Notes under the pieces: model-generated
What the model saw: the letters and a program-made list of their open reading frames with translations, nothing else
Database searches by the model: none
What the model was told of the DNA's origin: nothing
Translations under genes and position numbers: made by a program
Shown here: piece by piece, positions 2,436-35,640 of the stretch
Position numbering within the stretch: the stretch's first letter is position 1
How the letters are laid out: every line of letters begins with the position of its first letter
Assembly (NCBI GenBank): GCA_903874575.1
Contig: CAIQSZ010000370.1
Coordinates: forward strand, 1 to 38,552
DNA length: 38,552 nucleotides
Source: an uncultured Elusimicrobia bacterium
GTDB lineage: Bacteria > Elusimicrobiota > Elusimicrobia > UBA1565 > UBA9628
Direction: 5' to 3'

Positions 2436-2453
2436 CGTCCAGGCCCGGCCGGC

Positions 2454-5511: not shown

Positions 5512-5597
5512 GGCGGGATTCTATCAAAATCACTACGGCGCGCCCTTCGAACCGGAGCCTCCGCGCCGGGAACGCCGTTCGTTTCTTCCATTTTTCC

Positions 5598-5626: not shown

Positions 5627-5638
5627 TCGTCGCAACAG

Positions 5639-16081: not shown

Positions 16082-16133
16082 CGAATTGCTCCTGGTCATG
16101 TCGATATGCCAGCCTCGGCGGAGGCGACCGGTC

Positions 16134-16147
16134 ATTATATAACATTG
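16134..16147 (-). promoter_or_regulatory. AT-rich element upstream of nrdJ: possible -10 box (TATAAT on minus strand) and/or degenerate NrdR-box-like site
   Basis: The minus strand reads CAATGTTATATAATGA about 50 nt upstream of the nrdJ ATG. It is the only AT-rich island in this intergenic region. The palindromy is imperfect. Confidence 0.25.
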
Positions 16148-16171
16148 CGCGCGTCGGGTTCCTGCTGCGTC

Positions 16172-17128
16172 TTAGGCGGCCGTCGGATCGAGCTTGCGAC
16201 GCCGGCGCAGCCCGCGGCGGGAGATCTGCTCTTGCGTTCCGCACGAGCACAGGTACGCCCCGAGGGTGCGGCAGTTTTCCGCGGCGAACAGGAGGAGCTC
16301 AAGGCAGCTTTCCAGGCTGCGCGCGGTCGGGCGCCAGAGGAGGTGAGGGGACTGCTCGCCCTCTTTAGGCTTTTCGCCCTTGGCCAGCACGCGGTCCTGA
16401 TTCTCCGCGCACAGGAACAGCTCGTGGATGTTCAAGTGAGGCACCTTCATCGCGTCCAGGGCGAGGACCATCGCTTCCAGCTTCGGAAGGTCTTCCGGCA
16501 CGACGGGAATCTCGACGGCGACCTCCTCGAAAATCGACTTCGCCAGCTTCACGGGAGCCAGGTCGTAGTCGCGCGCAGCGGCGTCGAAGCGGATCGAATC
16601 CAGGCCCGCGCCCTTAAGGCGGCGCAGGATATCCTCGTCGGCTCGGTCCCCGTTGGTGTATAGATCCACCCGCGGCGGCCGCGGCATGGTCTTCAGCGCC
16701 TCCAGGATGGCGAGCACGCGTTCGGGAAACAACAGAGGCTCGCCGCCGGACAACCCGACGCTGCGCAGGCCGAAGCGCTCGACGATGGCCGGAGCCTCGG
16801 ATGGCTCCTTGACCGGGATGCCGTGGACGACCGTCTCGTCCTTGCGAGGCTTCTGATTGAAGCAGAAAAAACAGTCGCGCGTGCACAGTCCCGTCACATA
16901 GAGGTTCGTTCCCTTGCCCGCCAGGCACGGCTTGCAGCCCGCCGGCAATCCGCGCGTGAACAAGGTCATGCTCGCGCCGTCGCCGCGCACCCCGGCCGCG
17001 CGCAGGCGTTCGAGCAGGCCGGCGATGCGCTCGACTTGCGCGGGCTCGGGCTCGGCGCCGGGCGCGACCGTGGAGCGCGCGGCCCGCCGCGCGTACCACG
17101 AGAGGTCGTCGCCCTCCTTCAGCCCCAA
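16172..17128 (-). CDS. radical SAM protein (unclassified; small activase-like)
   Basis: CTRDCFFC is a CX3CX2C motif. GLSGGEPLL is a SAM-binding GGE motif. An upstream Cys pair CKPC is present. The start is uncertain: TTG at 17128 or ATG at 16969. Confidence 0.7.
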   Translation of the reverse strand: MGLKEGDDLSWYARRAARSTVAPGAEPEPAQVERIAGLLERLRAAGVRGDGASMTLFTRGLPAGCKPCLAGKGTNLYVTGLCTRDCFFCFNQKPRKDETVVHGIPVKEPSEAPAIVERFGLRSVGLSGGEPLLFPERVLAILEALKTMPRPPRVDLYTNGDRADEDILRRLKGAGLDSIRFDAAARDYDLAPVKLAKSIFEEVAVEIPVVPEDLPKLEAMVLALDAMKVPHLNIHELFLCAENQDRVLAKGEKPKEGEQSPHLLWRPTARSLESCLELLLFAAENCRTLGAYLCSCGTQEQISRRGLRRRRKLDPTAA

Positions 17129-17275
17129 GCGGCCTTCGTCCGGGTATTAGGGAACACCGTCCATATTGTGTGAAATATCCGGCGAGTCCGCCAATCGCCA
17201 TCGCCTCGTGCGCGCCCGACTCTATGACCATTGCCATAGTCAGCTCGTTTGGGCGGGGCTATACTCCGGGTATCT

Positions 17276-18043
17276 ATGGAACACTCCATCGACATCCGGT
17301 TGCGCCTTCACTTCGAACCTCGCACCCTGCGCCCGGTTCTCGCGGGGCTGTTCGTGTTCCTGCTGGCGGCGGACCTCGCGTCCGAGAGCGTCACGCTGAC
17401 CACCTATTACCCGGCCCCGTCGGGGGTCTATACGCAGATGATCACGACCAACAATACGTTTCTGGCCCGCGACGCCGGCAACGTCGGCATTGGGACGGCC
17501 GCGCCCGTGTCTAAACTCGACGTGACGGGGACCGCCTACGTCAGCAAGTTGGTCATGAAAGGGAACAACACCGCGAACACCGCCGATCCGCTTGCGGCGG
17601 ACTTCGTGATCGGCAGCAACAGCCTAGGCGCGGTGCGCCACGACTCAAGCATCATGTTTTGGAGCAATGCGAGCGCCTCGCGCATTTTTAACCAAAACGA
17701 CAGTTTCTTCCTAAGTGCTTGGAATCAAAATCCGACCGCCGCCGCCAACGTCGTTCTGGGCGCGGGGCCCGGCTTCTCCAGCCACTTCGGCGGCAACCTT
17801 GGCGTCGCCGGGACTCCGCCGGGCGCCAGTCCATATTTATACGTGAACGCGGCCAACGCTCCCGGCTGCGCCGTGACCTTTGGGAACTGCGCTCCGGGTC
17901 AGTACATCACCTGGGTGCCCGGCATCTATGTCGACAATGCTTGGTGGTATACCGGAGATACTTTGAACTTCGTGCCCCATGGGGGTATTTCGGGGTTCGA
18001 CGTCACAACGGCGCCTACCCCCCATTATTGTTGCAATCAATAA
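17276..18043 (+). CDS. secreted or membrane-anchored protein with tail-fibre-like GNVGIGT motif, C-terminal ...HYCCNQ
   Basis: N-terminal hydrophobic anchor LAGLFVFLLAADLA, then TLTTYYPAPSGVYTQM and AGNVGIGTAAPVSKLDVTG. First gene of the long plus-strand operon. The start is uncertain: ATG at 17276 or TTG at 17249. A weak TAGTCA-17-TATACT promoter-like element lies at 17237-17265. Confidence 0.55.
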   Translation: MEHSIDIRLRLHFEPRTLRPVLAGLFVFLLAADLASESVTLTTYYPAPSGVYTQMITTNNTFLARDAGNVGIGTAAPVSKLDVTGTAYVSKLVMKGNNTANTADPLAADFVIGSNSLGAVRHDSSIMFWSNASASRIFNQNDSFFLSAWNQNPTAAANVVLGAGPGFSSHFGGNLGVAGTPPGASPYLYVNAANAPGCAVTFGNCAPGQYITWVPGIYVDNAWWYTGDTLNFVPHGGISGFDVTTAPTPHYCCNQ

Positions 18044-18084
18044 TGACGGGCCGGCATATCCGCAGTGGAAGTTCGGAACGTTGA

Positions 18085-19026
18085 ATGGCTGAGCTCGCCT
18101 ATCTCCAGGTCGCGCGAGTTTGCAACCAGAAGTGTCTCTTCTGTTCGAATCCGGAGAACGGACGCGTCATCAGCTGGGAGGAGGCGGTGTCCTTCGTGGA
18201 CTCCTCCGCGGCCCAAGGGGCGGCCGGTCTTATCCTCACCGGTGGAGAACCGACGTTGTTCGAGCGCCTTCCCGAGTTGGTCGCCTATGCCCGCAAAAAG
18301 GGACTGCCCGCCAGGATGATCACCAACGGCCAGCGCGCCGCTCGGCCGGGCTTTCTGCGCGCACTCGCCGCCGCGGGTCTGGAGCATATGCACGTCTCCG
18401 TTCATTCCGTCAAACCCCGCGTCCAAGGGCGCCTGACCGGCAATCCGCGGTCTTTGGCCAATATTTTCAAGGCCATAGAATACGCCGGCCGCGAAGGCGT
18501 GAGGGTGGACGTCAACATGGTCATCAATGCGTTGAACGCCGATCACTTGAGCCTCAACGTCCAGGTTTTGGCGGAAAGATTCCCGTTTCTGCGTCATTTC
18601 GTTTGGAACAACCTGGACCCGATGATGAACCGCGCCTCGCTCAATCCGGACCTGGTTCCCAAACTACGCGCTTTCGAGGTGGAACTCCACAAGGCCATGG
18701 TTTGGCTGGACGCGACGGGGAGGACCTTCCGCGTCGAGAGGGTCCCCCTGTGCTTCATGTCCGACTTCCCTCACCGCTCGACCGAGACGCGCAAGATCGT
18801 CAAGGACGAGAACCGCGAGATATACTTCCTCGATGAGAAAGGCCTGCGCCGCCAAGGCCGGAGCGCCTGGACCTACGAAAAGCCGGCGCGGTGCGCCGAC
18901 TGCTCCCTGACGACGATCTGCGCGGGTCTTTACCAGATGGACGTCTATTATTCCTCGGAGGAACTCTGCCCGGTTTTCACGCCCGTCGAAAGCGTGCGGG
19001 CGGCCGTCAAGGCGGACGCTCCATGA
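18085..19026 (+). CDS. radical SAM enzyme, HxsC-like paralog 1
   Basis: CNQKCLFC (CX3CX2C), LTGGEPTL, ITNGQR and the C-terminal CADCSLTTIC (CxxCx5C) motif, which is shared with four other domains in the operon. Confidence 0.75.
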   Translation: MAELAYLQVARVCNQKCLFCSNPENGRVISWEEAVSFVDSSAAQGAAGLILTGGEPTLFERLPELVAYARKKGLPARMITNGQRAARPGFLRALAAAGLEHMHVSVHSVKPRVQGRLTGNPRSLANIFKAIEYAGREGVRVDVNMVINALNADHLSLNVQVLAERFPFLRHFVWNNLDPMMNRASLNPDLVPKLRAFEVELHKAMVWLDATGRTFRVERVPLCFMSDFPHRSTETRKIVKDENREIYFLDEKGLRRQGRSAWTYEKPARCADCSLTTICAGLYQMDVYYSSEELCPVFTPVESVRAAVKADAP

Positions 19027-20198
19027 GCGGAAACTTATTTCTCGGCGTGATTCTTCTTCTCGGAGGGGCGGCGACCATGTCGGATTGGCGGGAGAGCCGC
19101 GTGCCGAACCGGCTCGTCCTGCTGGGCCTGGCCGCCTTCGCCGGCGGACTGGTCTATCACCTGCTCTCCTCGGTCCTCGGGCATCGGGGATGGCGCCTGC
19201 TCGACATAGGTGAATATTATTTGCCCTGGCGTTTTTTCTCGATGCTGGGCGTTCACGCGATTTTGAGTCTCATCGCCGGTTGGACTCTGTGGCGTGTCGA
19301 CGTTTGGCCCGCCGGCGACGCCAAGCTTTATATTGTAATTTCTTGGCTCCTGCCTCTGGCCAACGCGAATTTGACGGGTTTCCCGAGACTCCTCTTCATC
19401 GTACTCCTCATCAATTGCTTCGTGCCGCCGGGTATACTCTTCGCCTGCGAGGGGGTCATCCGGCTCGCGGCCGCGGTCCCGGCGTTCTTTTCCGAAGGGA
19501 TATTCCGCGCGCTCAAGTCCGCCGTGAGCCGCGTCGTCCGGCGGATCAAGGACCTGCGGCCCATGCGACTGGAGGTGGCCGCCTTGCTGGTCAATTTGGC
19601 GTGCTTGTTCTTCGTCATGCGCTTGCTCGAGGCGCAGCTTCACCGCCAGCCGTTCGGGGCTTTAGGCCAGCTCGCGGTGTTTCTATCGATGCTCGTGGTC
19701 TGGCCTCGGCTTGTCGTCCTCCTCTATCGACCCCGATTAGGCGCCGCGGCGCTGTGTCTGTTTTTCGTCGGAGCAGTCTGCGCCGTCGTCGCGGGATTGG
19801 ACTTGGGGGCGGTTGTCTGGCGCGCGGCCAAGATGATGGTCAACTTCGGTTTCGCTCTTTCTTTGGCGCGCGTGGTCTTCAGCCGCGTCATCGAGCGCTC
19901 GAGTCTGCGGGACGTCGCCCCCGACGAATTGCGCCCGGGCGCCTTGCTGGCGGACACGGAGTGGGAAGCGCTTTCCAAGGACGAGGGCTCGCGCGGGATC
20001 GTGGAAGAGAGGAACTGCGACGGCCTGACGCGCGTCGAGGCCGAAGCTCTCCGCAGCAGCCTGTCGGGCCGCGGCGTCCGTTCCTTGTGCGTTTACCGGA
20101 CCGTTCCTTTCGCGGCCTGGATATTCCTGGGCACGGTATTGACCCTCGCGCATCAGGGGACCATCGTGTCTTGGGCTCGGAGTTGGATGGCTCGATGA
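19023..20198 (+). CDS. A24-family (prepilin peptidase-like) polytopic aspartyl protease with an inserted or extended C-terminal region
   Basis: The first Asp context MSDWRESRVPNRL resembles the D-x-R-x-x-IPN of CpaA/TadV. The second is WPAGDAKLY, a GxGDxKL-like motif. The C-terminal TVPFAAWIFLG resembles the PFGPFL end of prepilin peptidases. ATGA overlaps on both sides with radical SAM genes. Confidence 0.6.
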   Translation: MSGNLFLGVILLLGGAATMSDWRESRVPNRLVLLGLAAFAGGLVYHLLSSVLGHRGWRLLDIGEYYLPWRFFSMLGVHAILSLIAGWTLWRVDVWPAGDAKLYIVISWLLPLANANLTGFPRLLFIVLLINCFVPPGILFACEGVIRLAAAVPAFFSEGIFRALKSAVSRVVRRIKDLRPMRLEVAALLVNLACLFFVMRLLEAQLHRQPFGALGQLAVFLSMLVVWPRLVVLLYRPRLGAAALCLFFVGAVCAVVAGLDLGAVVWRAAKMMVNFGFALSLARVVFSRVIERSSLRDVAPDELRPGALLADTEWEALSKDEGSRGIVEERNCDGLTRVEAEALRSSLSGRGVRSLCVYRTVPFAAWIFLGTVLTLAHQGTIVSWARSWMAR

Positions 20199-21106
20199 GC
20201 GAACGCATCGACCTTAAAGTGGGTTTTCGCTGCAACAACTACTGCACGTTCTGCGTCCAGGGCGACAAACGTCAGCGTCTGCCCTCCAAGCCCGAGGGCG
20301 AACTTTTCAAAGCGCTCGAGGAGGGCCGGCTTGAAGGCGCCGACGGCGTCGTTCTCACCGGCGGCGAGCCGACGCTTCATCCTAAGATCGTCGCCATCGC
20401 GGCCAAAGCCAAGAGCCTCGGCTATCGGACGATCCAGGTCCAGACCAACGGGCGGACCTTCTGCTACGGCGACCTTATCAAGCGCCTGGCCGACGCGGGC
20501 GTCAACGAGTTCGGTCCATCCCTGCATGGTTCCACGGCGAGGATACACGATTGGCTCACCGGCGCGCCGGGGGCCTTCCTTCAGACCGTCTCGGGCATGC
20601 GCAACATAAAGAAACACGGAATGCGCCTCATCACCAACTCCGTCATTACGAGAGCCAATTATCGAGATCTCCCTAATTTGGCGAAGCTTCTCGTGTCGCT
20701 CGGCGTCGATCAGTTTCAATTCGCGTTCATGCACATGACCGGGCGCGCCGGAGAGAACAAGAATTGGCTGACGGCGCGCATGGCGATCGCCGAGCCTTGG
20801 GTGAAAAAGGCTCTTGACGTCGGCATCGCCGCCGGCCGGACCGTCATGACCGAGGCTATTCCTTACTGCCGCATGTCCGGGTATGAGGACTATGTCGCCG
20901 AGAGGATCATTCCCCGCACCCGAATCTACGACGCCGACTGCGTCATCGCCGACTACACCAAGACCCGTTTGGACGAAGGGAAGGCTCGCGGACCGCTTTG
21001 TCCGAAATGCGATTGGAACGACCGTTGCGAGGGTCCGTGGCGGGAATATCCGGAACTTTTCGGTTGGGATGAATTCGTTCCGGTTTTGCGAACTGGGGGG
21101 GCTTAG
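20195..21106 (+). CDS. radical SAM enzyme, HxsC-like paralog 2
   Basis: CNNYCTFC, LTGGEPTL, QTNGRTF and C-terminal CPKCDWNDRC (CxxCx5C). Confidence 0.75.
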   Translation: MSERIDLKVGFRCNNYCTFCVQGDKRQRLPSKPEGELFKALEEGRLEGADGVVLTGGEPTLHPKIVAIAAKAKSLGYRTIQVQTNGRTFCYGDLIKRLADAGVNEFGPSLHGSTARIHDWLTGAPGAFLQTVSGMRNIKKHGMRLITNSVITRANYRDLPNLAKLLVSLGVDQFQFAFMHMTGRAGENKNWLTARMAIAEPWVKKALDVGIAAGRTVMTEAIPYCRMSGYEDYVAERIIPRTRIYDADCVIADYTKTRLDEGKARGPLCPKCDWNDRCEGPWREYPELFGWDEFVPVLRTGGA

Positions 21107-21116
21107 GCCAACGACT

Positions 21117-22289
21117 ATGAGCAGGTTAATAAAGCGGTTCCGTCGCGTTTTTTTCGCCGTCCTTGCCGTCTTGACGGTCGGGGTGTGCCATGCCGCTCCG
21201 CCTTCCCAGCCGCAACAAGCCAAGCTCGGCCAGAAGGATGCAGGTAAAAATACCGGCAAAAGCGAGGAAAGAGACAGGAGCAAAGACAAGGAGCAGCAAG
21301 CGAACCTGAGAAAATTTTCCGCTTGGGACGAACTGTGCCGGGCGGGGACGTTCGATATTCGCGCCGTCAAGGGCCGCGATTCGGGCTCTCCGCCTGAATT
21401 GGGCGTGGCGTATGCGTGCCTTGCGCTGGCGTCTTCCGCGGCGGCTCCGGCCAAGGCGTCGGGCAATCCGGGATTGGACGAGGACGTCCGCAGCCTGACC
21501 GGGAGCGTCTTAGCCATTCACGGCGTCCTGTCGGGAGGTGGTTACACGGAGAAAGCATGCCGGTTGATGGCCGGGACGCCTGAGGGCCAGGCGCCCTCCT
21601 CCGCGAGCAAGCAGCAGTGCCAGCTTTTTTTCTCGGCCCTCCGGGAGAACAAGGGCGGCGGCTTATTGTGCGATCAGGCCAAGGCGAAAGGTCTTGCGGG
21701 CGCAGGCTTTGATTGTTCTCTGGCCGCCAACGTCGTGGATGGGAATTCCAAACGATGCGGCGGTCCCGATGCTTTGCGCTGCCAGGAACTGGCGGGTCTC
21801 GTCGCGGCGTTGCGTTCCAAGGATCCGGGAGGGTGCTCGTCCTCCGTGTTCTGCAAGGTCTTGAAGAGTCGCGACGCCAGGGATTGCGAGCCGTATTTGA
21901 AAAAAGCGGACGTCGGGTTCTGCGCTCGGAACGCCGAGGAATTAGGTAAGCTGAAGCAAGCGGCCCGCGGCGATGCGGATCGTGAGAAAAAAGACAAGGA
22001 CGAGCTCGCCGCAAAAATCCGCGACCAGCAGGCGCAGATTCAAGCCGAAGCCAAGAAAGCCCAGGAGGACCTCGCTGCAAAAACAAGAGATCAGAAACTG
22101 ATGCCCGCGGATGCCGCAGCCAAATTAGCCCGCAGCGAGCAGCAGGCGGAGGCGATGGCCAAAAAAGCGGCCGCCAAAAAAGCGGCGGATGAAAAATTTC
22201 ATAAAGATAAATTTAATAAAATGCAGCCCATGCAGGCCGTCTCGACGGATATCCAGAAGCGAATGAAAGAGATCGAAGGGAAGAAGTGA
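21117..22289 (+). CDS. secreted Cys-rich protein with C-terminal Lys/Ala/Glu-rich coiled-coil tail
   Basis: Signal peptide MSRLIKRFRRVFFAVLAVLTVGVCHA. Repeated short D/K-x(2-4)-C spacing, seen in KDPGGC, RDARDC, ADVGFC and PDALRC. The last ~110 aa are low-complexity K/A/E/Q. Confidence 0.6.
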   Translation: MSRLIKRFRRVFFAVLAVLTVGVCHAAPPSQPQQAKLGQKDAGKNTGKSEERDRSKDKEQQANLRKFSAWDELCRAGTFDIRAVKGRDSGSPPELGVAYACLALASSAAAPAKASGNPGLDEDVRSLTGSVLAIHGVLSGGGYTEKACRLMAGTPEGQAPSSASKQQCQLFFSALRENKGGGLLCDQAKAKGLAGAGFDCSLAANVVDGNSKRCGGPDALRCQELAGLVAALRSKDPGGCSSSVFCKVLKSRDARDCEPYLKKADVGFCARNAEELGKLKQAARGDADREKKDKDELAAKIRDQQAQIQAEAKKAQEDLAAKTRDQKLMPADAAAKLARSEQQAEAMAKKAAAKKAADEKFHKDKFNKMQPMQAVSTDIQKRMKEIEGKK

Positions 22290-22302
22290 ACGCAGTTCCG
22301 AT

Positions 22303-22929
22303 ATGTCGGCGCGCAGGGAGAATATCAGGGTGAAAAAGCAATCGAAGGAATCTAAGATCGTGGTGGACCTTTCGGTGTATCCATTGGAGGCGGTCCAGGC
22401 CGTGGCTTACTCGCTGATGGAGCGCCTTTCCGTTCGCATAGAACGCGGCGGGAATAAAGCGGTTTCCGTCATCCTGAAGCCGAAGTCGGGCGGGAATCCC
22501 GAGGCGCTGGCCGACGAATTCCAAGGCGAGCTTCTGCATGAGACCCTCCGTCTCCAGGTGTCGCTGGCGAATCAAAAGATCCGAGAGTACATCGTGACGA
22601 AGGCCTTGGTTTCGGCCCAGGTTCCCAGTGTGGTTCCGGAAGCGGTCTCTGATTCGGCCTCGTCGGCGGCGGCTGAGTCCTGTCCCGAGTGCCAGGCCCA
22701 ACAGGCCCAAGCCGCGCCGCCTCCGGTCGACGCGGAATTGGAGAAAGAGATCGAGAAACTTCTCGTTGAAATCGAGAAGGGCGACGGCGGAGACGATCCT
22801 CTGGGAGTGGCGGTGCCGTGGGAAGAGAAGTACGGCAAGGCGTCCGAAGCCGCGCCGCCGCCTTCGGATAAAGAGCCCTCGAAAATGAAATCAAAAACGG
22901 CAAAGCCGGCGAAGCCGGGGGCTGCATGA
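22303..22929 (+). CDS. hxsD: HxsD-like protein (His-Xaa-Ser system accessory protein) with ~100-aa low-complexity C-terminal extension
   Basis: FQGELLHETLRLQVSLANQKIREYIVTKAL resembles the LLNDYxLRE signature I recall for HxsD. The gene sits directly upstream of hxsB with an ATGA overlap. The tail contains CPEC and Pro/Ala/Lys-rich sequence. Confidence 0.55.
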   Translation: MSARRENIRVKKQSKESKIVVDLSVYPLEAVQAVAYSLMERLSVRIERGGNKAVSVILKPKSGGNPEALADEFQGELLHETLRLQVSLANQKIREYIVTKALVSAQVPSVVPEAVSDSASSAAAESCPECQAQQAQAAPPPVDAELEKEIEKLLVEIEKGDGGDDPLGVAVPWEEKYGKASEAAPPPSDKEPSKMKSKTAKPAKPGAA

Positions 22930-24395
22930 GCGGGGAAGCCCCCATCGTGGAGTTCCCACGCCTCAATCCGGAAAAGACGGGTTTTTTTCGGTTTCGACGG
23001 CTCAAGGATGATTATCTCATCACCAATGATTTCGGCCGGCACTGCCTCTTAACGGCGGCGGAGTTCAAGAGCTTCGTCGAGGGCTCGATGGACGCATCCT
23101 CGCCGTTGTACGCGCGGCTGGCGCAGGACGGATTCATCCGCGACAGCATGGATTTCGAGGCGTTGACGTCCGTTTGGCGGACTCGCAACCGCTTCCTATG
23201 GCAGGCCCCCAATCTTCATATCATCGTCGTCACTTTGCGCTGCAACCACCGTTGCCTCTACTGTCAGGCCAACTCGGTCTCGATGAAGGATGAGTCGTCG
23301 GATATGAGTTTGGAGACGGCGCGCAAGGTCGTGGACCGGATATTCGAGAGCGTAAGCCCCGCCATCACCATCGAGTTCCAGGGCGGGGAACCCTTGGCCA
23401 ACTGGCCGGTCGTTCAGTTCATCGTCGAGTACGCCCGCACGAAGAACCGCGAGGCCGGCAAGAGCCTGTGGATCAACTTAGTCACCAACCTGAGTCTCAT
23501 GGACGACGAGAAGTTGAAATTCCTCCTCAAGAACGAGGTCAACTTTTGCACTTCGCTCGATGGGCCCGCGGACCTGCACGACAAGAACCGCGTTTTCTCC
23601 GGCGGCAACAGCCATGCCGGCGCCGTGCGGTGGTTCAAGAAGATTCAGAAGAAGACGGTGGGCAAAGCCTTCCGCATCGATGCCTTGCTGACGGTGACGC
23701 GGTTCTCGCTGTCGCGCCACAAGGACATCATCGATGAGTATATCGGTCTCGGCATGCGCGGGATATACCTGCGGCCTTTAAGCCGGCTCGGCCTGGCGCG
23801 CGGGACCTGGGACCGGATCGGCTACGAGCCGGACGAGTTCCTCGAATTCTATCGGAAGTCGCTCGATTACATCCTTGAAATCAACAAACGCAAGAATTTT
23901 TTCGAGCAGACCTCCCGCTTGTTCCTGGCTAAGATTTTGGGAGACAACGATCCCAACTTTTTGGACCTCCGTTCGCCCTGCGGCGCGGGGATCGGCCAGA
24001 TCGCCTACAACTTCAACGGCGATCTTTATACCTGCGACGAAGGACGGATGTTCTCGCGCATGGGAGACGAATCCTTCCGCATCGGGGGCGTCAACGAGGG
24101 ATCTTACCAGGAAAGCGTGAGCCACCCGACCGTGCGCGCCATCACGGTGGCTTCCACCCTGGATAACCAACCGCAGTGCTCGAAATGCGCTTATAAGCCC
24201 TACTGCGGCGTGTGCCCGGTGCAGTGCTACGGTGAACAAGGCGATATCATGGGCCGCATGCCGTCCAACACGCGTTGCCGCTTGAACATGGGCGTCCAGG
24301 ACGCTTTATTCGAGCGGCTTCGGGATCCTAAGACGGAAAAGACTTTCAGGAAATGGATTCGTGAAAGAAAAGAACCGGCCGTCTCTCCGCGCTAG
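22926..24395 (+). CDS. hxsB: radical SAM/SPASM maturase, HxsB-like
   Basis: CNHRCLYC lies ~110 aa from the N-terminus. FQGGEPL is present. C-terminal SPASM-type Cys cluster CGAG...YTCDEG...CSKCAYKPYCGVCP. Directly upstream of the His-Xaa-Ser repeat gene. Confidence 0.75.
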   Translation: MSGEAPIVEFPRLNPEKTGFFRFRRLKDDYLITNDFGRHCLLTAAEFKSFVEGSMDASSPLYARLAQDGFIRDSMDFEALTSVWRTRNRFLWQAPNLHIIVVTLRCNHRCLYCQANSVSMKDESSDMSLETARKVVDRIFESVSPAITIEFQGGEPLANWPVVQFIVEYARTKNREAGKSLWINLVTNLSLMDDEKLKFLLKNEVNFCTSLDGPADLHDKNRVFSGGNSHAGAVRWFKKIQKKTVGKAFRIDALLTVTRFSLSRHKDIIDEYIGLGMRGIYLRPLSRLGLARGTWDRIGYEPDEFLEFYRKSLDYILEINKRKNFFEQTSRLFLAKILGDNDPNFLDLRSPCGAGIGQIAYNFNGDLYTCDEGRMFSRMGDESFRIGGVNEGSYQESVSHPTVRAITVASTLDNQPQCSKCAYKPYCGVCPVQCYGEQGDIMGRMPSNTRCRLNMGVQDALFERLRDPKTEKTFRKWIRERKEPAVSPR

Positions 24396-24404
24396 AGGTA
24401 TTCC

Positions 24405-24872
24405 ATGGGCAAAGAAATCATTCCTAAAATCAAAAAAGACCTCACTCGGTTCTTGACGAGTGAAGAAGGTAAGATGCTCAAGAAGGACATCCTTAAGGCC
24501 GCAGCCATCCTGGGCATCGTCGGAGCGACCATGATGAAGGCGGAGGACGTCCTCGCTCAGACCCACACCAACGCCCTCCATAATTCGGGCGGACAGGCGT
24601 CGAGCCATGTGAGCCATAGTTCGCATGCCAGCCATGCTTCTCACGGCTCTCACGGCAGCCACGGTTCGCACGGCAGCCACGGTTCGCACGGCTCCCATGG
24701 CTCGCACGGAAGCCACGGCAGCCACGGGTCCCACGGCTCGCACGGATCCCATTCATCCCACGGCAGCCACGGCAGTCATGGGAGCCATGGCAGCCACGGC
24801 AGTCATGGCAGCCACGGCAGCCACGGCAGCCACGGCAGTCATGGGAGCCATGGCAGCCACGGGAGTTGGTAG
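24405..24872 (+). CDS. hxsA: His-Xaa-Ser repeat precursor protein (29 H-x-S triplets, 24 of them HGS)
   Basis: GAGG RBS 7 nt upstream of the ATG. A 67-aa N-terminal region contains the Sec-like hydrophobic segment KKDILKAAAILGIVGATMMKAEDVLAQ. Then HVS-HSS-HAS-HAS-(HGS)12-HSS-(HGS)12-W-stop. Confidence 0.85.
   Translation: MGKEIIPKIKKDLTRFLTSEEGKMLKKDILKAAAILGIVGATMMKAEDVLAQTHTNALHNSGGQASSHVSHSSHASHASHGSHGSHGSHGSHGSHGSHGSHGSHGSHGSHGSHGSHSSHGSHGSHGSHGSHGSHGSHGSHGSHGSHGSHGSHGSW
24606..24866 (+). repeat. coding tandem repeat, 9-nt period x 29 (CAY-GGN-TCN/AGY)
   Basis: Read directly from the sequence. The first 12 HGS units mix TCT/TCG/TCC/AGC Ser codons, while the last 12 use only AGC/AGT. The last 12 also contain an exact 36-nt duplication, units 1-4 equal to units 8-11 of that block. 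Confidence 0.95.
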
Positions 24873-26652
24873 CGGAGCAACGTCCGGAAGCAACTGGTCG
24901 AAGGCGCTGCTCAAGGTCGGCTACGCCTGCAATAATCGCTGTGTCTTCTGCCATTCGGAGTCGTTCCGGGTCATCCATCCCGAACTGACGACGCGGGACC
25001 TCCAGGCTCGGATACTGGAGGTCAAGGCGCGCGGCGTCGAGATGGTGGTTTTTTCCGGCGGCGAGCCGACGCTGCGTTCCGACATCTCTGAGTTGGCCCG
25101 TTTCGCGCATCAACAGGGGCTGAAAACCGGCTTTATCACGAACGGGCGTCGGTTCGCGTACCCCTCGTTCGTTCGGGATATGCGCGCCTGCGGGCTCCGC
25201 TTCGTTTATACGTCCTTCCATTCGCCCCTTCGTCGCGCTCATGAGTCGTCGAGCGGCGCCGACAGCCTCACGCAAGTCCTGGCCGCGTTGCGCCACTTGT
25301 CGCGTTCGGAAGTCGAACTGACCGTCAACACGGTCGTCACGCGCCATAACATCGGGAGCCTGTCGGAGGTCGTCGACCTTTTAGCCGCGTTCGCCCCCGC
25401 GAGGATTAAGTTCTCGGTCGTCGAGCCGAAGGGCGCGGCTCTCGAGAATCCGACGCTCTGTCCCCCGCTGAAGGAGAGCGCGGCGGCGATTTCGGACGCG
25501 ATCCGATATGGGGAATCAAGGCATCCGAACGTTCGCTTCGCTTGCGAAGGGCTGACGCCGTGCCTTATCGACGATTTCGACCGACTCAACGACGACCTGG
25601 TTTCGAACGGATTCGTGCTTTTTCAGGAGACGTTCGAGTCTCGTCCCGTCCGCCCCGATTACGGCAATCGCGCGAAAGCGGCGGCGTGTTGGGATTGCGC
25701 GCGGCACGATTCGTGCCCCGGCGTGTTTCAGGGCTATCTTTCCTCCGATCACGATCTCCCGATTCAGCCGCGGCCGAGCCGCATTTCCAATTCCTTCGTT
25801 TTCCTGCGCGGGGATCTCGCCGCCCCTCCGCGCGTCCCGGCGGAGTGCTCCTTGGAACGGGGCGACGTCCGCGGCATTTTCGTCGCCGAAGGGAATCGAC
25901 TGCGCTCGTATCGGACGCCCACGTCCGATTTTTCCGACGCCGAGATCGCGGAGACATTGCGTCTCGGCCAAGTGTATAAGACCCGCGGCGCGAAGCATAA
26001 GGGACTCGAGTATGGGCGCGACCTGGTCAAATACCGCGTCTCGCGGCTGTGCCGCTCGTGCGACCGTCGCGTCGGGTGCTCCCGCATCTACGAGAGGAGT
26101 CCGGGCAACGCCTTCGCTCCGTTGGAATCGGCGTTGGAGGACGTCGTGCGCGGCCTGCGCGGCGATATCCTGGAGGTCGGCTGCGGCAATATCCGGTTCC
26201 GAAGCGTACTCGAGGCCCTCGTTCGGGCGGGGCGCATGAGGTACGTCGGCATCGATCCGCATCTACCGCGGATGGCGGTTCCGCGCGGCATGTCGGTGCG
26301 CCGCGTCGATATCGAGGATTTCGACGCGGCCGCCGCCGCGTTCGATCATATCCTGATTTCGCGCAGCTACAACCATATCCGGCTTCCCTCCGTGGCTTTC
26401 CCGAAAATCCGACGATTATTGAGGGCGAAAGGCCGCTTGACCGTCGTCGACGGAGTTTCCTGCGGGATACTCCTGCCGCGTCGGCCTCCCGAGGCGTCCG
26501 CGTCGGAGTTCCAACACTATCGGAACCATTCGTCGGGGCAGGCTAAGGAGATGATCGCGTCGTTCGGCTTTTCCGCGGTCCGCGAGATCCCGGTCGATCC
26601 CGGCGGCGGCAGCGAGTGGCTGCTTTCCTTCCGCAAGAAGAGCCTCGAATGA
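24841..26652 (+). CDS. hxsC: radical SAM enzyme (HxsC-like, paralog 3) fused to a C-terminal class I SAM-dependent methyltransferase-like domain
   Basis: CNNRCVFC, FSGGEPTL, ITNGRRF and CWDCARHDSC (CxxCx5C). The C-terminal ~200 aa carry DILEVGCGNIRF, a motif I GxGxG-like sequence. No start codon exists after the hxsA stop. The candidate ATGs at 24841 and 24850 lie inside the hxsA repeat in the +1 frame, so the start is uncertain. Confidence 0.7.
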   Translation: MGAMAATGVGSGATSGSNWSKALLKVGYACNNRCVFCHSESFRVIHPELTTRDLQARILEVKARGVEMVVFSGGEPTLRSDISELARFAHQQGLKTGFITNGRRFAYPSFVRDMRACGLRFVYTSFHSPLRRAHESSSGADSLTQVLAALRHLSRSEVELTVNTVVTRHNIGSLSEVVDLLAAFAPARIKFSVVEPKGAALENPTLCPPLKESAAAISDAIRYGESRHPNVRFACEGLTPCLIDDFDRLNDDLVSNGFVLFQETFESRPVRPDYGNRAKAAACWDCARHDSCPGVFQGYLSSDHDLPIQPRPSRISNSFVFLRGDLAAPPRVPAECSLERGDVRGIFVAEGNRLRSYRTPTSDFSDAEIAETLRLGQVYKTRGAKHKGLEYGRDLVKYRVSRLCRSCDRRVGCSRIYERSPGNAFAPLESALEDVVRGLRGDILEVGCGNIRFRSVLEALVRAGRMRYVGIDPHLPRMAVPRGMSVRRVDIEDFDAAAAAFDHILISRSYNHIRLPSVAFPKIRRLLRAKGRLTVVDGVSCGILLPRRPPEASASEFQHYRNHSSGQAKEMIASFGFSAVREIPVDPGGGSEWLLSFRKKSLE

Positions 26653-28916
26653 CGAAAAGACGGCGCGTGCTGCTGGTGAATCCTCCGGCGCTCCTGGACC
26701 GGGATTTCATCGATTATCCTCAATTCGTCGGGTTGGGGGTCGCGTCGAACGCCGCGGCTCTGCGCGCGCGGGGGCTTGCCGTGACGGTGGCGGACGCCCA
26801 GATGTCGGCGCAGGCCGAGGTCGCGGCAAGGGACGACGGCCGAGTGCGGCTTGGCTGCGATCTGGAACGGCTTCTGAAGACCGTCCCCGGCGATTTCGAC
26901 GACGTCGTCGTCGGAGTGTCCCCCTACGCGAAGCCGCACGCGCGCACCGAATTCACCGCGCGGCAGTTCGCCGCGGCGCGCGCGCGCTTCCCTTCCGCGA
27001 GGCTGGTGGCGGCGGATTTCTATTTCGGCGGCATCCACTATATCGAGTACGACGGCGAACGGTTTTTGCGCGATTATCCCCAAGTGGACGCCGTGGTGAA
27101 ATATGAGGGCGAATCGGCGCTTGCCGCTCTTCTGAAGTCCTCCGGCCCGCTGCCGCGCGTGACGCGCGCGGTCGCGGAGGACATCCCGGTGGACTCCCTG
27201 CCTTATCCCGCTTGGGACCCGAAGTTCGTCGAAGGGCACGGAGACTTGTCGGCGAAGTTTTATGCCGCGAGCGGCCGTCCGGCGCCCTATCCGCCCGGCG
27301 TCGTGACCTTGCCCGCGGTGACTTCCCGGAGCTGCGCTTACCGCTGTTCCTTCTGCACCTCGAATCCGGGCCAGAGCCGAGCGTCGTTCCGGCCGCATGG
27401 GGCGGCTTACCTGCGGCGATATTTTTCCGAACTAAAAAATAAATTCTCCGTCCGACGCCTGGTCCTTCTTGACGGATGCGCCAATTACGATCCGGCGCGT
27501 TTCGACGAGATATTATCGATTATCGGAGAACTCGGCTTGCGCTGCGATTTCCCGAACGGGCTTCGAGCGGACAAATTGACTTTTGCGGCGCTCCGGGCGC
27601 TGAGCGCCGTCTCGGACGGCGTTTCCATCAGCGCGGAATCAGGCGATCCCGAGGTCCTTTCGCATATTTTTAAGAAAGGGATGGATCTTTCGGCCGTCGA
27701 GAGAGTCGCGTCCTGGTGCCGCGAGCTCCGGCTGCCTATAGGCATTCATTATATCGTCGGCGCTCCCGGGGAGACGCCGGAGAGCGTCAATCGGACCCTG
27801 CGCCACGCGTTGAGGATGACGGACGATTTCGGGGCCCGGCCGCTGCTGCAGAATTTCGTGCCTATTCCCGGCACGGCGCTTTATGGGGAGTGCGAGCGGC
27901 GGGGGCTTCTGAAGAGGTTCGACGCGGAGAATCTCCATCGATATTTTCAGGGAGAGCCGGCCCTGTCCACGCCCTCGCTGAGCCGGGCGAAGCTGTCGCG
28001 CATGGTCCGTCTGTTCCGGAGCAGGCTGGAGGCTTCGTCGCTGCAGAAAGTCATCGTCAACCTCACCTATCACTGCAACAACAACTGCCGGTTCTGCGCC
28101 GTCGGGGACCGGGGCAAGCGGCATGGGGACTTCGAGCGCTATGGGCGGCTTCTGGCCGACTATAGAAAGCGCGGAGTCACGGCTCTGGATTTGGACGGAG
28201 GCGAGCCGACGCTGTATCCGGAATTTTTTCCGCTCGTCCGCCTGGCGCGGCGATGCGGCTATGAGAAGATCACGGTCACGACCAACGGCCGGCGGCTCGC
28301 CGATCGCGCCTTCGCGGCTCGTTTTCTTCTCAGCGGCATCTCCGACCTGCTGATCTCCCTGCACGGGCATACGCCGGAGATCCACGAATATCAAACGAGA
28401 CGAAAGGGGAGCTTCGCCGAGGCCGTCCAGGGCCTCCGCCATGCGTTGAGGCTCAAGCCCGGCCGCATGACGGTGGGGGTCAATACCATGCTCCTCGCGG
28501 AGAACGCCCGGCATCTTCCGAGCTTCCTCGATTTCATGGATGAATTGGGGGTGGAGAAGGTGAACGTCCAACTGCTGACCCCCTTCGGCAACGCGGCGGC
28601 CGCGCCCGGTCGGGGCGATTTCGACGTCTACGGACATGCGGCTCGCGCGCTGCGGCGTCGGAAGAAGACGCCGGCCGTTCAACTCGTCAACGTCGTTCCC
28701 TGCCTGCTCGCGGGGCACGCGCGAGGCGTGCCGGCCGAACTCGGCAAGCATGGGCGGGAGATGGTGTTCGTGGACGCGGCTCCTCGCAATCTCGCCGCAT
28801 ACCTTGACGCTCGGAGGCATAAGACTGATCAATGTCGAGGCTGTGAATTTGATATCGGATGCGGCGGCTTCCATGTCTTCAACGCTGAAGAAGATCGAAC
28901 TGATCCTCTGGTTTAA
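26649..28916 (+). CDS. double radical SAM fusion: N-terminal class-B-like (B12-binding-like domain + rSAM) and C-terminal HxsC-like rSAM (paralog 4)
   Basis: The N-terminus RRVLLVNPPALLDRDFIDYPQFVGLGVASNAAALRARGLAVTVAD is B12-binding-domain-like. The first cluster motif is CAYRCSFC. The second half has CNNNCRFC, LDGGEPTL, TTNGRRL and CRGCEFDIGC (CxxCx5C). ATGA overlap with the upstream stop. Confidence 0.7.
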   Translation: MTKRRRVLLVNPPALLDRDFIDYPQFVGLGVASNAAALRARGLAVTVADAQMSAQAEVAARDDGRVRLGCDLERLLKTVPGDFDDVVVGVSPYAKPHARTEFTARQFAAARARFPSARLVAADFYFGGIHYIEYDGERFLRDYPQVDAVVKYEGESALAALLKSSGPLPRVTRAVAEDIPVDSLPYPAWDPKFVEGHGDLSAKFYAASGRPAPYPPGVVTLPAVTSRSCAYRCSFCTSNPGQSRASFRPHGAAYLRRYFSELKNKFSVRRLVLLDGCANYDPARFDEILSIIGELGLRCDFPNGLRADKLTFAALRALSAVSDGVSISAESGDPEVLSHIFKKGMDLSAVERVASWCRELRLPIGIHYIVGAPGETPESVNRTLRHALRMTDDFGARPLLQNFVPIPGTALYGECERRGLLKRFDAENLHRYFQGEPALSTPSLSRAKLSRMVRLFRSRLEASSLQKVIVNLTYHCNNNCRFCAVGDRGKRHGDFERYGRLLADYRKRGVTALDLDGGEPTLYPEFFPLVRLARRCGYEKITVTTNGRRLADRAFAARFLLSGISDLLISLHGHTPEIHEYQTRRKGSFAEAVQGLRHALRLKPGRMTVGVNTMLLAENARHLPSFLDFMDELGVEKVNVQLLTPFGNAAAAPGRGDFDVYGHAARALRRRKKTPAVQLVNVVPCLLAGHARGVPAELGKHGREMVFVDAAPRNLAAYLDARRHKTDQCRGCEFDIGCGGFHVFNAEEDRTDPLV

Positions 28917-29760
28917 ATGCAACTGCCGCTGCGCTTTCTGCGTCGTCGACGCGGAGACGGCGCGTCAGTCCATGACGACGGCCGAAGCCGTGCGTCACAT
29001 GGGGCGAGCCCGGAAGGAGGGCGCGAGCGCGGTGGATTTCGGCGGCGGGGAGCCGACGCTGCGCGACGACTTGGCCGCGCTCGTCCGGGCCGCCGCCGCG
29101 TTCGGGTATTCGGACATCGGCGTCAAGTCGAACGGATTGATGTTCTGCTATCCGGAATACGTCGAGACGTTGCGCCGCGCGGGGGCGGACCGTTTTTCCG
29201 TCTCCGTTTGGGGCGATTGCCCGTCCGTCCATGACGCGCTCTGCCGGACGCCGGGGGCCTTCGAGAAGATGGAGATGGGGATAAAAAACGTCGTCGATTC
29301 GGGGGGCGATCCTGAGGCCGAGGTTCTGCTGACCGTCGGGTCCGTCCCGCGGTTGGGGCGCATCGTGGGGGCGTTCGCGGACATCGGGGTGAAGCGGTTC
29401 CGGTTCTGGCTCTATTCGCTCTTCGGGGCGGATTCCCGTTTTCCGGAGCTTCTGCCGACGTTGACGGACGCGGGAGCGGCGATCTCGCGGACGTCCTCCT
29501 CCTTCGCATCCCGAGGACTGATTTTTTCGACGAGCCACGTCCCGCCCTGTTTTCTGCGCGCGCGGGGCGTCTACGCTCCCATTGCCGACGAAGGACTGCG
29601 CATCATCACGCCGGGCGGAGCGTTCGCCGCCGAGCGTTCGCCGTTCGAGGCCGGCGTCAAGACGCGGCGGTGCGCGGGATGCTCCCACGCCGACCGTTGC
29701 GGAGGGGTTCGTCACGAATATCTCCAGCGTTTCTCCGATGCCGAAATCACGCCGATCTGA
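28873..29760 (+). CDS. radical SAM enzyme, HxsC-like paralog 5
   Basis: CNCRCAFC, FGGGEPTL, KSNGLMF and CAGCSHADRC (CxxCx5C). The ATG at 28873 overlaps the previous gene by 44 nt. Confidence 0.7.
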   Translation: MSSTLKKIELILWFKCNCRCAFCVVDAETARQSMTTAEAVRHMGRARKEGASAVDFGGGEPTLRDDLAALVRAAAAFGYSDIGVKSNGLMFCYPEYVETLRRAGADRFSVSVWGDCPSVHDALCRTPGAFEKMEMGIKNVVDSGGDPEAEVLLTVGSVPRLGRIVGAFADIGVKRFRFWLYSLFGADSRFPELLPTLTDAGAAISRTSSSFASRGLIFSTSHVPPCFLRARGVYAPIADEGLRIITPGGAFAAERSPFEAGVKTRRCAGCSHADRCGGVRHEYLQRFSDAEITPI

Positions 29761-31156
29761 GGGGTTGCCGCCGGCGCAGGCGCGCGACTTTCAACGCTAT
29801 CTCGAAATGGCCCGCGGGCTTCCTTGGGAGGCCGAGCAGCTGCCGGCCTGCGAACTGCACGGCGCGCCGCTCTCCGGAGAGGCTGTCGGCGCGCTTTGGG
29901 CTCAGGCCGTCCGGGCGGGCTCTTTCGGGGGGGGCCTCGGCCTCTATTGCCACATTCCGTTCTGCGCGAGCCGTTGCGGCTATTGCCATTGCTTTTCCGA
30001 CGCCTTGAAGCGCCCGGATGAGTTAAGCGACCACCTCCGCCTGCTCTTGACGGAGATCTCTCTCTGGGGGCCGACGTTCGCCCGGAGCCGCTTCACCAAC
30101 GCCTACATCGGCGGCGGGACGCCCACGCTCCTGCCTCCGAAAGGCCTGGCGCTTCTATTGGGCGCGATACGAAGCGCCTTCCGTTTCACGGATGACGCTC
30201 AGATTACCGTCGAGTCCACGCCGAGGACCGCCGACGCGAACCGTTTGGCCGTCCTGCGCGCCCATGACGTCCGTCGCCTGAGTCTCGGCGTTCAATCCTT
30301 GGATCGCGCGGTGCTGGCCCGCGCGGATCGACAATGGCAGACCTTCGAGATGGTGGAACGCGCCTGCCTCAACGCCCGCCGGGCGGGGTTCCCCATCGTG
30401 AACGCCGACCTCATCGCGGGCCTTCACGGTCAATCCGTCGCCTCGCTCATCGCGGACGCGCAAGCGGTGGCTCGGCTGGGATTCGATACGATACACGTCT
30501 ACTACTTCGAACCGAACAAAGGCGCCTACGACGGCCGCGGTCGCCTCGGCGCCGCCTGGCGACGGCGCCGTCAGGCCATGCTGGCGGCGGTCGGTCCCGC
30601 CCTGGCTCCTTACGGCTACCGGGCCATCTTCGGCGAGACGATCTACGCGTTGCGCGAGGGGGCGGAGAACCGCTACGATTTCGAACGGTACTTCCGAGCG
30701 GGTTCGATCCTCGGTCTGGGATGGCAGGCTGAATCCCATGCTTTCCCGGGAACCAACTACAGACATCTTTCGAGGCAATCGTGGCAGGAAAGCCTTCGGG
30801 CCGGTCGCATGCCGCCCGTGCGGTCGTACCGGGGCGGACCGGACTGGGAAATGCGGGAGTTTCTCGTCTTCCGTCTGCGCCAAGGGGTCGATTATGGCGT
30901 TTTCCGGAGACTTTTCGGCTGTCGGCCTCAGGACGCGTTTCCGGCCGCCTTCCGCGCCCTCCGGCGGGCCGGCCGCCTTCGCGAGCGGACCGGCTTCGTT
31001 CAGGCGGTGTTCGGCTCACAGTTGGAGTATCTGGCCGTCACTTTGCATTTTTTCCCCGAAGAATCTCTTTTGAGGGCATTGTCGATGCGCCCATCGGTCC
31101 AGACGGATGGAGGGCGAGAGTCGCCCGTGCGTCGCGGCTCGCGCCCGGAGGCGTAG
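29738..31156 (+). CDS. HemN-like (class C) radical SAM enzyme
   Basis: YCHIPFCASRCGYCHC (CX3CX2C followed by an extra Cys), YIGGGTPTLL, SLGVQS and a HemN_C-like tail. The start is uncertain: ATG at 29738 or 29810. Confidence 0.75.
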   Translation: MPKSRRSEGLPPAQARDFQRYLEMARGLPWEAEQLPACELHGAPLSGEAVGALWAQAVRAGSFGGGLGLYCHIPFCASRCGYCHCFSDALKRPDELSDHLRLLLTEISLWGPTFARSRFTNAYIGGGTPTLLPPKGLALLLGAIRSAFRFTDDAQITVESTPRTADANRLAVLRAHDVRRLSLGVQSLDRAVLARADRQWQTFEMVERACLNARRAGFPIVNADLIAGLHGQSVASLIADAQAVARLGFDTIHVYYFEPNKGAYDGRGRLGAAWRRRRQAMLAAVGPALAPYGYRAIFGETIYALREGAENRYDFERYFRAGSILGLGWQAESHAFPGTNYRHLSRQSWQESLRAGRMPPVRSYRGGPDWEMREFLVFRLRQGVDYGVFRRLFGCRPQDAFPAAFRALRRAGRLRERTGFVQAVFGSQLEYLAVTLHFFPEESLLRALSMRPSVQTDGGRESPVRRGSRPEA

Positions 31157-31157
31157 C

Positions 31158-32300: not shown

Positions 32301-32536
32301 CCGAATCCGAAGAGACCCTTGATCTTCGCGGCGTTCCTTGTCCAGCCAACGCGGCTCGGGCGCTGATGGCGCTCGAGGGGTGCGAGGCCGGAGACCTGCT
32401 GAGGCTACTGCTGGACGACGGCGAGCCCATCGAGAACGTGCCTCCCTCGCTGGAGGAGCAGGGCCATGCCGTGGTCGGGAAATCCTGGCGGGGAGGGGCG
32501 TGGGAACTGTCGGTGAGGGCGGGAGGTCCATCCTGA
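32297..32536 (+). CDS. TusA/SirA-like sulfurtransferase
   Basis: LDLRGVPCPANA matches the DxRGxxCPxP persulfide-carrier motif. About 79 aa. ATGA overlap with the cysteine desulfurase gene. Confidence 0.75.
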   Translation: MTESEETLDLRGVPCPANAARALMALEGCEAGDLLRLLLDDGEPIENVPPSLEEQGHAVVGKSWRGGAWELSVRAGGPS

Positions 32537-35627: not shown

Positions 35628-35640
35628 GTCTTCGCGGCTT

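Follow-up and report, generated by a model that had tools for sequence, protein, structure and literature searches.

The subject of this analysis is a 38,552-nucleotide stretch of DNA from an uncultured Elusimicrobia bacterium (contig CAIQSZ010000370.1 of assembly GCA_903874575.1, hereafter the window), which carries a gene array related to the His-Xaa-Ser system (HXS, genes hxs). Canonical HXS is an antiphage system in which HxsB and HxsC mature the precursor HxsA, whose N-terminus is processed and whose SHRSS motif undergoes a change of +8 Da; HxsC and HxsD bind in a complex, no stable association of HxsB with HxsC was detected, more than 99.8% of the systems consist of exactly four genes, and 99.7% occur in Pseudomonadota (Li et al., Nat Commun 2026, PMC13128918). 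Between positions 17249 and 33558 of the window every gene lies on the plus strand with intergenic gaps of -50 to +41 nt, and hxsA is located in the middle of the array (Table 1). The window encodes nine radical S-adenosylmethionine (radical SAM, rSAM) domains in all, exactly five of which are of the HxsC type; we refer to these as R1 to R5. The closest named relatives of the R2 protein found in a homolog search are from Elusimicrobia.

Table 1. Genes of the array and its flanks in the window, with family scores and motif positions
Feature	Position	Strand	Family scores and motifs
Rm, divergent rSAM protein, 318 aa	16172-17128	-	CTRDCFFC, without CxxCx5C; Pfam Radical_SAM 52 bits
R1, stand-alone HxsC-type rSAM, 313 aa	18085-19026	+	CNQKCLFC at 18121; GGEPT at 18241; CADCSLTTIC at 18892-18921
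Polytopic membrane protein, 391 aa, weakly Peptidase_A24-like (prepilin peptidase)	19023-20198	+	Pfam PF01478 24.9 bits, E 2.9e-5
R2, stand-alone HxsC-type rSAM, 303 aa	20195-21106	+	CX3CX2C at 20231; CPKCDWNDRC at 20999-21028
Lys/Ala/Cys-rich protein with signal-like N-terminal segment, no family match	21117-22289	+	
HxsD-like, 208 aa, longer than canonical HxsD	22303-22929	+	TIGR03976 44.5 bits (cut-off 50)
HxsB, rSAM/SPASM maturase	22926-24395	+	TIGR03978 530.9 bits (cut-off 370)
HxsA4-type precursor, 155 aa	24405-24872	+	NF038313 131.7 bits (cut-off 55)
R3, HxsC-type rSAM (~24886-25764) fused to class I SAM methyltransferase domain (~26155-26466)	24841-26652	+	CX3CX2C at 24928; CWDCARHDSC at 25687-25716
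R4, B12-rSAM-like N-terminal half fused to HxsC-type C-terminal half (~28032-28910)	26649-28916	+	CAYRCSFC at 27333; CNNNCRFC at 28074; CRGCEFDIGC at 28833-28862
R5, stand-alone HxsC-type rSAM, 295 aa	28873-29760	+	CX3CX2C at 28918; CAGCSHADRC at 29671-29700
HemN-like rSAM, class C type	29738-31156	+	STM4012 family 152.6 bits, HemN 123 bits (each under its cut-off); Pfam Radical_SAM, weak HemN_C
NifS-type cysteine desulfurase	31107-32300	+	TIGR03402 378.8 bits (cut-off 530)
WbuX-like amidotransferase	32338-33558	+	
NodU-like carbamoyltransferase	33713-35404	+	

A preliminary description of this DNA had proposed that the five domains can be aligned along their whole length, and this is borne out. 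In a MAFFT alignment R1 to R5 match end to end over ~295 residues with 22-29% identity and 25 invariant columns; the open reading frames (ORFs) lie at the coordinates given there, and the motifs it quoted (CX3CX2C, GGEPTL, TNG or SNG and the five CxxCx5C strings) are all found in place. Common to the five domains are the CN..C.FC form of the CX3CX2C motif, GGEPTL (preceded by T, T, S, D and G in R1 to R5, respectively), (T/S)NG, CxxCx5C-x-G and, in addition to the motifs listed in that description, a fourth non-core cysteine within a P-x-C motif (C223 in R1), which is invariant and precedes CxxCx5C by ~45 residues. When each domain in turn was left out and compared with a profile of the other four, the omitted domain scored 152-194 bits, two canonical HxsC proteins 60-77 bits, and HxsB and Rm 18-25 bits, the match of the latter two being confined to the first ~100 columns; no score was obtained for the HemN-like protein or for the B12-rSAM half of R4. 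Profiles restricted to the C-terminal non-core columns still returned the omitted domain with 20-45 bits, the sole other matches being canonical HxsC with 11-17 bits. The family is thus picked out by the C-terminal columns alone, and a resemblance limited to motifs common to all rSAM enzymes is not what is observed: the likeness among R1 to R5 is real and specific and reaches past the generic rSAM core.

In order to place the five domains with respect to HxsC itself, we used as canonical comparators the HxsC proteins (389-401 aa) of two annotated Hxs systems on plasmids of Aeromonas salmonicida and Methylobacter. In an hhalign comparison the five-domain profile matches canonical HxsC with a probability of 99.1% (E 5e-19) across 252 columns, from CX3CX2C through P-x-C to CxxCx5CxGF; the C-terminal signature of the canonical proteins reads IPHC or HPLC followed by CDDCASKAVCCGFF or CLNCNSRQECGGFF (Aeromonas and Methylobacter, respectively). 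The CX3CX2C motif lies at residues 117-124 in canonical HxsC and at residues 13-16 in R1, R2 and R5, while it is preceded by 29 residues in R3 and by the B12-rSAM domain in R4, so that the ~105-residue N-terminal domain of canonical HxsC is absent from all five. Scored against the HxsC equivalog model TIGR03977, which has a curated cut-off of 267.9 bits, R1 to R5 reach 75.9, 98.6, 66.3, 77.3 and 60.7 bits, and against the HxsC4 exception model NF038332 (cut-off 500 bits) they reach 64.1, 159.6, 95.3, 107.3 and 104.0 bits; HxsC is the top NCBIfam family for R1 and HxsC4 for R2 to R5. Where canonical HxsC occurs as one copy per system, the window holds five, in the neighbourhood of HxsD, HxsB and HxsA (22303-24872). 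Because the scores lie far under the cut-offs and the N-terminal domain is missing, R1 to R5 belong to a broadly defined HxsC family and are not HxsC or HxsC4 equivalogs. The earlier designation of the domains as HxsC-like therefore holds in so far as they form one family whose whole catalytic domain aligns with HxsC, and it does not extend to the full-length canonical enzyme.

The C-terminal CxxCx5C motif had been likened to a truncated SPASM/twitch-type auxiliary Fe-S site. Among 86 representatives seven cysteines are conserved at 97-100%, including all four extra ones of P-x-C and CxxCx5C, and in a set of 45 that covers the entire radiation together with canonical HxsC six cysteines are invariant and the seventh, that of P-x-C, is retained in at least 90%. 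The CxxCx5C motif is found in ~100% of 269 full-length related domains and in canonical HxsC, which settles the earlier question of its conservation in homologs. An AlphaFold2 model of R2 computed from 49 sequences has a mean predicted local distance difference test score (pLDDT) of 94.5 and a predicted template modelling (TM) score of 0.91, and among PDB folds Foldseek ranks SkfB and BlsE highest, with GDGT-MAS and SuiB next, all of them rSAM enzymes that carry their auxiliary clusters in twitch or SPASM domains. The SkfB and BlsE matches align over 259-269 of 303 columns with a TM-score of 0.65, in a whole-chain ranking; over SkfB (6efn), BlsE (7vob), SuiB (5v1q) and PqqE (6c8v) the E-values range from 1.8e-13 to 5e-9 at TM-scores of ~0.65. 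Like the twitch and SPASM enzymes, R1 to R5 have a Cys-rich extension C-terminal to the rSAM core, and the CX2CX5C spacing of SPASM recurs both in them and in the HxsB of the window. SPASM proper (PF13186/TIGR04085), however, has seven cysteines, with a CX2CX5CX3C motif, that bind two auxiliary clusters, whereas R1 to R5 have four extra cysteines and no CX3C after CX2CX5C, and the Pfam SPASM model matches none of them. By whole-chain rank the fold of the R2 model is closest to twitch and SPASM enzymes, and most probably the four extra cysteines bind one twitch-like auxiliary Fe-S cluster, which is the most economical account of their conservation. R3 has a second CxxCx5C motif (CRSCDRRVGC, 26050-26079) in the linker that joins its rSAM domain to the methyltransferase domain, which might have marked a duplicated cluster site; it is kept in the L022, L089 and L003 orthologs and missing from those in L091 and L092, and was therefore rejected as a feature of the family.

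To assess how far the expansion extends, we collected 80 related loci by a genome scan with R2 and 10 by a metagenome scan with HxsB (labelled L001 and so on). Across them the number of HxsC-type domains per locus ranges from 1 to 12, and among the 43 R2-centred loci of at least 18 kb (long loci), in which Hxs and His-rich neighbours were sought within 10 kb, the median is 4 and the maximum 12. Clustering at 40% identity divides the 269 full-length domains into 39 groups. No NCBIfam families match this radiation more widely than HxsC and HxsC4, with 42 of 45 representatives each; the strongest match of a representative to the HxsC4 model has E 4.5e-101, ten candidates for the subfamily behind that model scored at most 143 bits, and some related paralogs match HxsC4 over its whole length. 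The preliminary description had pointed to a five-fold expansion inside one operon: the five domains are there, but they are not peculiar to one operon and belong to a radiation of 39 subfamilies.

Orthologs of R1 are found in 52 loci with 46-88% identity and orthologs of R2 with 51-80%, rising to 86% among database proteins; those of R2 occur in Elusimicrobia, Myxococcota, Patescibacteria/Saccharibacteria, Omnitrophota and Woese-/Pacearchaeota, and R1 and R2 alike span Elusimicrobia, Myxococcota, bacteria of the candidate phyla radiation (CPR) and DPANN archaea. Between Elusimicrobia, CPR and DPANN genomes R2 orthologs are 51-57% identical (L035, L039, L040, L047, L049, L055, L071 and others), a level of conservation that is unusually high for an rSAM enzyme of accessory function and suggests that R2 has spread horizontally under strong constraint. 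Only R1 and R2 are near-universal among the related loci, and in 20 of the 43 long loci they form a trio with the A24-like membrane protein between them. Orthologs of R3, R4 and R5 (53-64% identity) follow hxsA in unchanged order and with their fusions kept in L022, L089 and L092, and L091 shows part of this arrangement; the methyltransferase fusion of R3 is present in L022, L089, L091 and L092 (53-63%) as well as L003 (34%), and in L022, L089 and L092 the R4 orthologs are 55-64% and the R5 orthologs 60-61% identical. A neighbour-joining tree, crude at ~25% identity, places R1 to R5 in five separate deep clades with canonical HxsC nested among them. Conservation throughout the five subfamilies is limited to 14 columns, while each pair of subfamilies has 19-35 columns that are conserved in both with differing residues. 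Because R1 and R2 orthologs are 46-88% identical across phyla and the paralogs only 22-29%, R1 to R5 are five old subfamilies and not recent duplicates, with the properties expected of long-maintained, functionally distinct paralogs.

The HxsA4-type precursor encoded within the array consists of a conserved leader (IPKIKKDLTRFLTSEEGKMLKKD), a hydrophobic segment, ~29 consecutive H-x-S repeats (mostly HGS, 24606-24866) and a C-terminal tryptophan. Comparison of the window copy with the hxsA genes of L001, L003, L011, L022, L044, L055, L062, L073, L079, L082 and L083 shows the leader IP.IKKDL..FLTSEEGKI.KKD followed by a hydrophobic stretch, leader and C-terminal tryptophan being conserved across phyla; a broader form of the motif, (I/F)P.(I/L)KK.(I/L)..FL..EEGKI.KK(D/N), is kept from Elusimicrobia to a Woesearchaeota archaeon. 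Precursors of this type carry ~5 to 38 repeats, and most end in ...HGSHGS(W) or GQW. The HxsB of the window is 37-39% identical to the annotated plasmid HxsB proteins and has a weak Pfam SPASM match with the motif CSKCAYKPYCGVC. Nearly every close HxsB relative with downstream sequence has HxsC-type genes directly after hxsA (L001, L022, L026, L087, L089-L092), and in the window, as in L001, L003, L022, L026, L089, L090 and L092, the hxsA gene sits within the array. The association of the suite with HxsA is thus frequent, a statement we restrict to the loci given here. A minimal locus, L053, consists of HxsB and R2 only, R2 being the sole HxsC-like partner of HxsB; R2 also adjoins HxsB in the small loci L031, L055 and L067, of which L055, from Woesearchaeota, combines R2 and HxsB with an HxsA that has 5-6 repeats and the same leader motif. 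Since minimal loci pair HxsB with R2, this paralog, which is also the most conserved of the five, is the probable functional counterpart of HxsC.

Compared with the canonical HxsD-HxsB-HxsC-HxsA system (TIGR03976-03979), the window shares an HxsB that is a full member of its family, an HxsD-like protein, an HxS-repeat precursor and the whole catalytic domain of HxsC. It differs in having five HxsC-type domains where the canonical system has one HxsC, in its precursor, which replaces the five basic repeats and peptidoglycan-binding domain of canonical HxsA with the architecture described above, in the additional B12-rSAM, HemN-like, methyltransferase and NifS functions, and in its host, which belongs to the Elusimicrobiota and not to the Pseudomonadota. 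With respect to the type 4 families of NCBIfam, the precursor qualifies as HxsA4 (NF038313), whereas R1 to R5 remain far under the cut-off of HxsC4 (NF038332), which is described as "rare". The literature searched holds no description of HxsC4, of HxsA4 or of any multiplicity of HxsC. Two points are new. The rSAM suite of Elusimicrobia constitutes an HxsC-type radiation whose members share a conserved four-cysteine C-terminal subdomain, and both in the window and in several relatives its genes are interspersed with those of HxsD, HxsB and an HxsA4 precursor.

The remaining genes of the array suggest further functions. The WbuX-like and NodU-like genes are probable accessory tailoring genes, the NifS-type desulfurase probably supplies sulfur and Fe-S clusters for the nine rSAM domains, and the A24-like membrane protein, whose gene overlaps those of R1 and R2 by 4 nt each, is a candidate leader peptidase or export component. 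The N-terminal half of R4 scores best with HpnJ (70 bits) and with the P-methyltransferase Sden_1168 (54 bits). The HxsD-like ortholog in L001 carries the Pfam HxsD domain. Homologs of the Lys/Ala/Cys-rich protein (24-47% identity) lie directly upstream of hxsD in L088 and L090-L093. L088 is a close relative of the window (R1 87%, HxsB 84% identity) with the order R1, A24-like, Lys-rich, HxsD, HxsB (425-5659); R2 is missing between its A24-like and Lys-rich genes, where the gap measures ~40 nt. Orthologs of Rm (42-69%) are immediate neighbours of R2 in L031, L033 and L036-L038, and in L094 an ortholog forms a single protein with an R2-like domain; Rm is probably an accessory part of the same system. 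With the start codons chosen, overlaps of 23-50 nt occur between hxsA and R3 (24841-24872), R4 and R5 (28873-28916), R5 and the HemN-like gene (29738-29760) and the HemN-like and NifS genes (31107-31156), and the true starts of the overlapping genes may lie further downstream. A scan of positions 16000-35900 for consensus promoters and terminators gave counts near the shuffled expectation and was uninformative.

We consider it probable that the array is an expanded, type 4 His-Xaa-Ser maturation operon that carries out multi-step radical tailoring of HxsA4 with a division of labour among the paralogs. The core His/Ser modification, which in canonical systems is the work of HxsB and HxsC, would fall to R2 acting with HxsB and HxsD, and R1, R3, R4 and R5 would each catalyze a different radical step or act at a different position of the (HGS)n array. 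The methyltransferase, B12-rSAM, HemN-like, carbamoyltransferase and amidotransferase functions would contribute further tailoring, with NifS providing Fe-S clusters and the A24-like membrane protein removing the conserved leader or exporting the product. In related genomes different subfamilies are fused to each other, which argues that the paralogs are associated functionally and would probably work in physical proximity. Conserved signatures specific to each subfamily and the recurrent gene fusions lend indirect support both to a division of labour and to the formation of hetero-oligomers.

Several observations weigh against this reading. None of R1 to R5 attains the curated HxsC or HxsC4 cut-off, and the canonical interaction of HxsC with HxsD may depend on the very N-terminal domain that the five lack. 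Support for the auxiliary cluster comes from the conservation of the cysteines and from fold rank; in sequence searches of the PDB, both with R2 alone and with a profile of 45 sequences, the rSAM core alone was matched (positions 4-214 of 297), and the C-terminal 85 profile positions have no sequence match to any PDB chain. The peptidase match of the membrane protein falls just under the Pfam gathering score, and the tree that separates the five clades has the limited resolution mentioned above. HxsB or HxsA was found within 10 kb in only 9 of the 43 long loci, and R1/R2 loci without HxsB, several from Myxococcota and CPR bacteria among them, have no His-rich or HxS ORF within that distance. 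Since many R1/R2 loci thus have neither HxsA nor HxsB nor a His-rich ORF nearby, the HxsC-type suite may have another or an additional substrate.

The alternative that fares best, and which partly overlaps with a division of labour, is that the paralogs form an obligatory hetero-oligomeric maturase, one multi-subunit rSAM machine; we regard it as doubtful, though deserving of attention. Twenty ORFs with two rSAM domains were found in the related loci. Fusions of two subfamilies (~630-740 aa) occur in L040 (17008-18933), L051 (10891-12816), L073 (10897-12870), L022 (9992-11887) and L001 (11564-13774), three CPR genomes encode a fusion of subfamilies c12 and c8, and the R2 ortholog of L022 is joined to another paralog (c15). 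HxsC-type domains are also fused to methyltransferase, B12-rSAM and NodU-like carbamoyltransferase domains, with partners that differ by subfamily; the NodU-like fusions (~1165 aa) come from three other Elusimicrobia genomes (L005, 9586-13074; L011, 12787-16299; L016, 12749-16246) and suggest carbamoylation as part of the pathway. The recurrence of these fusions, the union of two rSAM domains in R4 itself, gene overlaps of 4-50 nt that are compatible with translational coupling, and the HxsC-HxsD complex of the canonical system (PMC13128918) would all suit a single machine. The plasticity of gene content, however, with 1-12 domains per locus and only R1 and R2 near-universal, is hard to fit to a fixed stoichiometry, L088 lacks R2 in an otherwise syntenic array, and in the canonical system HxsB and HxsC do not associate stably (PMC13128918).

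A further alternative, that the suite builds or modifies a small-molecule cofactor such as a tetrapyrrole and that the Hxs genes are mere neighbours, arises from the group VI nitrogenase paralogs. Up to 13 rSAM genes were described beside these paralogs in Elusimicrobia, Gracilibacteria and Myxococcales, and tetrapyrrole chemistry was proposed from the B12-binding, HemN_C and NifH-like context, with no mention of His-Xaa-Ser, homology to HxsC or a peptide precursor (Meheust et al. 2020, ISME J; bioRxiv 10.1101/765248); group VI is still listed under unknown cofactor synthesis in a 2026 review. The "extensive suite of radical SAM proteins" of that study resembles the window in phylum and kind of locus, and R1/R2 loci do show NflHDK, up to 12 rSAM domains and B12 and HemN_C fusions; unlike that suite, the window contains no nitrogenase-like gene. 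Homologs of the NflH, NflD and NflK proteins of L003 are present in 13 of the 43 long loci. In L026 (54-10936) they are part of a co-directional array that reads HxsB, HxsA, HxsC-like, NflH, NflD, NflK, R4-like, R1, A24-like, R2, and similar arrays occur in L003 (81-11899), L029 and L090 (1365-6907). The HemN-like and B12-rSAM genes of the window and the many R1/R2 loci without HxsA within 10 kb would also accord with cofactor synthesis. Against it stand the homology of the suite to HxsC along the whole catalytic domain, the position of hxsA within the gene array in the window and seven related loci, the conservation of the HxsA4 leader wherever the precursor gene adjoins the suite, and the family annotation of the window proteins, which revealed no tetrapyrrole biosynthesis gene; we judge this explanation unlikely.

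That the five are recent tandem duplicates or share a generic rSAM resemblance, so that the expansion would be without functional meaning, is very improbable and can be regarded as refuted: CX3CX2C and GGE are indeed common to all rSAM enzymes, and MoaA, NirJ and AhbD score within 10-80 bits of the HxsC scores, but the paralogs are far more divergent from each other than from their orthologs in other genomes, the leave-one-out profiles specifically detect the non-core C-terminal region while the four other rSAM domains of the window have no match past the first ~100 columns, and the hhalign match and the conservation of the subfamilies point the same way.

The maturation operon with division of labour thus being the reading we prefer, we tentatively extend it to a broader proposal, which we hold to be possible but well short of probable: the HxsC radiation, HxsB, HxsD, HxsA4, the A24-like protein and, in many genomes, NflHDK would constitute one widespread pathway that turns a ribosomally made (His-Gly-Ser)n protein into a product with heavy radical tailoring. 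This product might be a cofactor derived from the peptide, or a polymer that binds metal or is cross-linked, and the pathway would span CPR bacteria and DPANN archaea as well as Elusimicrobia, Myxococcota and Omnitrophota. On this proposal the orphan group VI nitrogenase-like enzymes would act on an Hxs peptide intermediate and not on a tetrapyrrole, with every HxsC paralog catalyzing a distinct step new to the chemistry of ribosomally synthesized and post-translationally modified peptides.

His-Xaa-Ser chemistry is unsolved, the only experimental paper reporting an undefined +8 Da change (PMC13128918). An HxsC scaffold that is split into conserved subfamilies with their own signatures and fusion partners amounts to a naturally dissected Hxs pathway, and it offers a testable substrate hypothesis for two orphan observations, the rSAM suite of groundwater Elusimicrobia and the group VI nitrogenase-like enzymes. 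The retention of R2 orthologs with more than 50% identity in small-genome CPR bacteria and DPANN archaea suggests that the product matters to these organisms.

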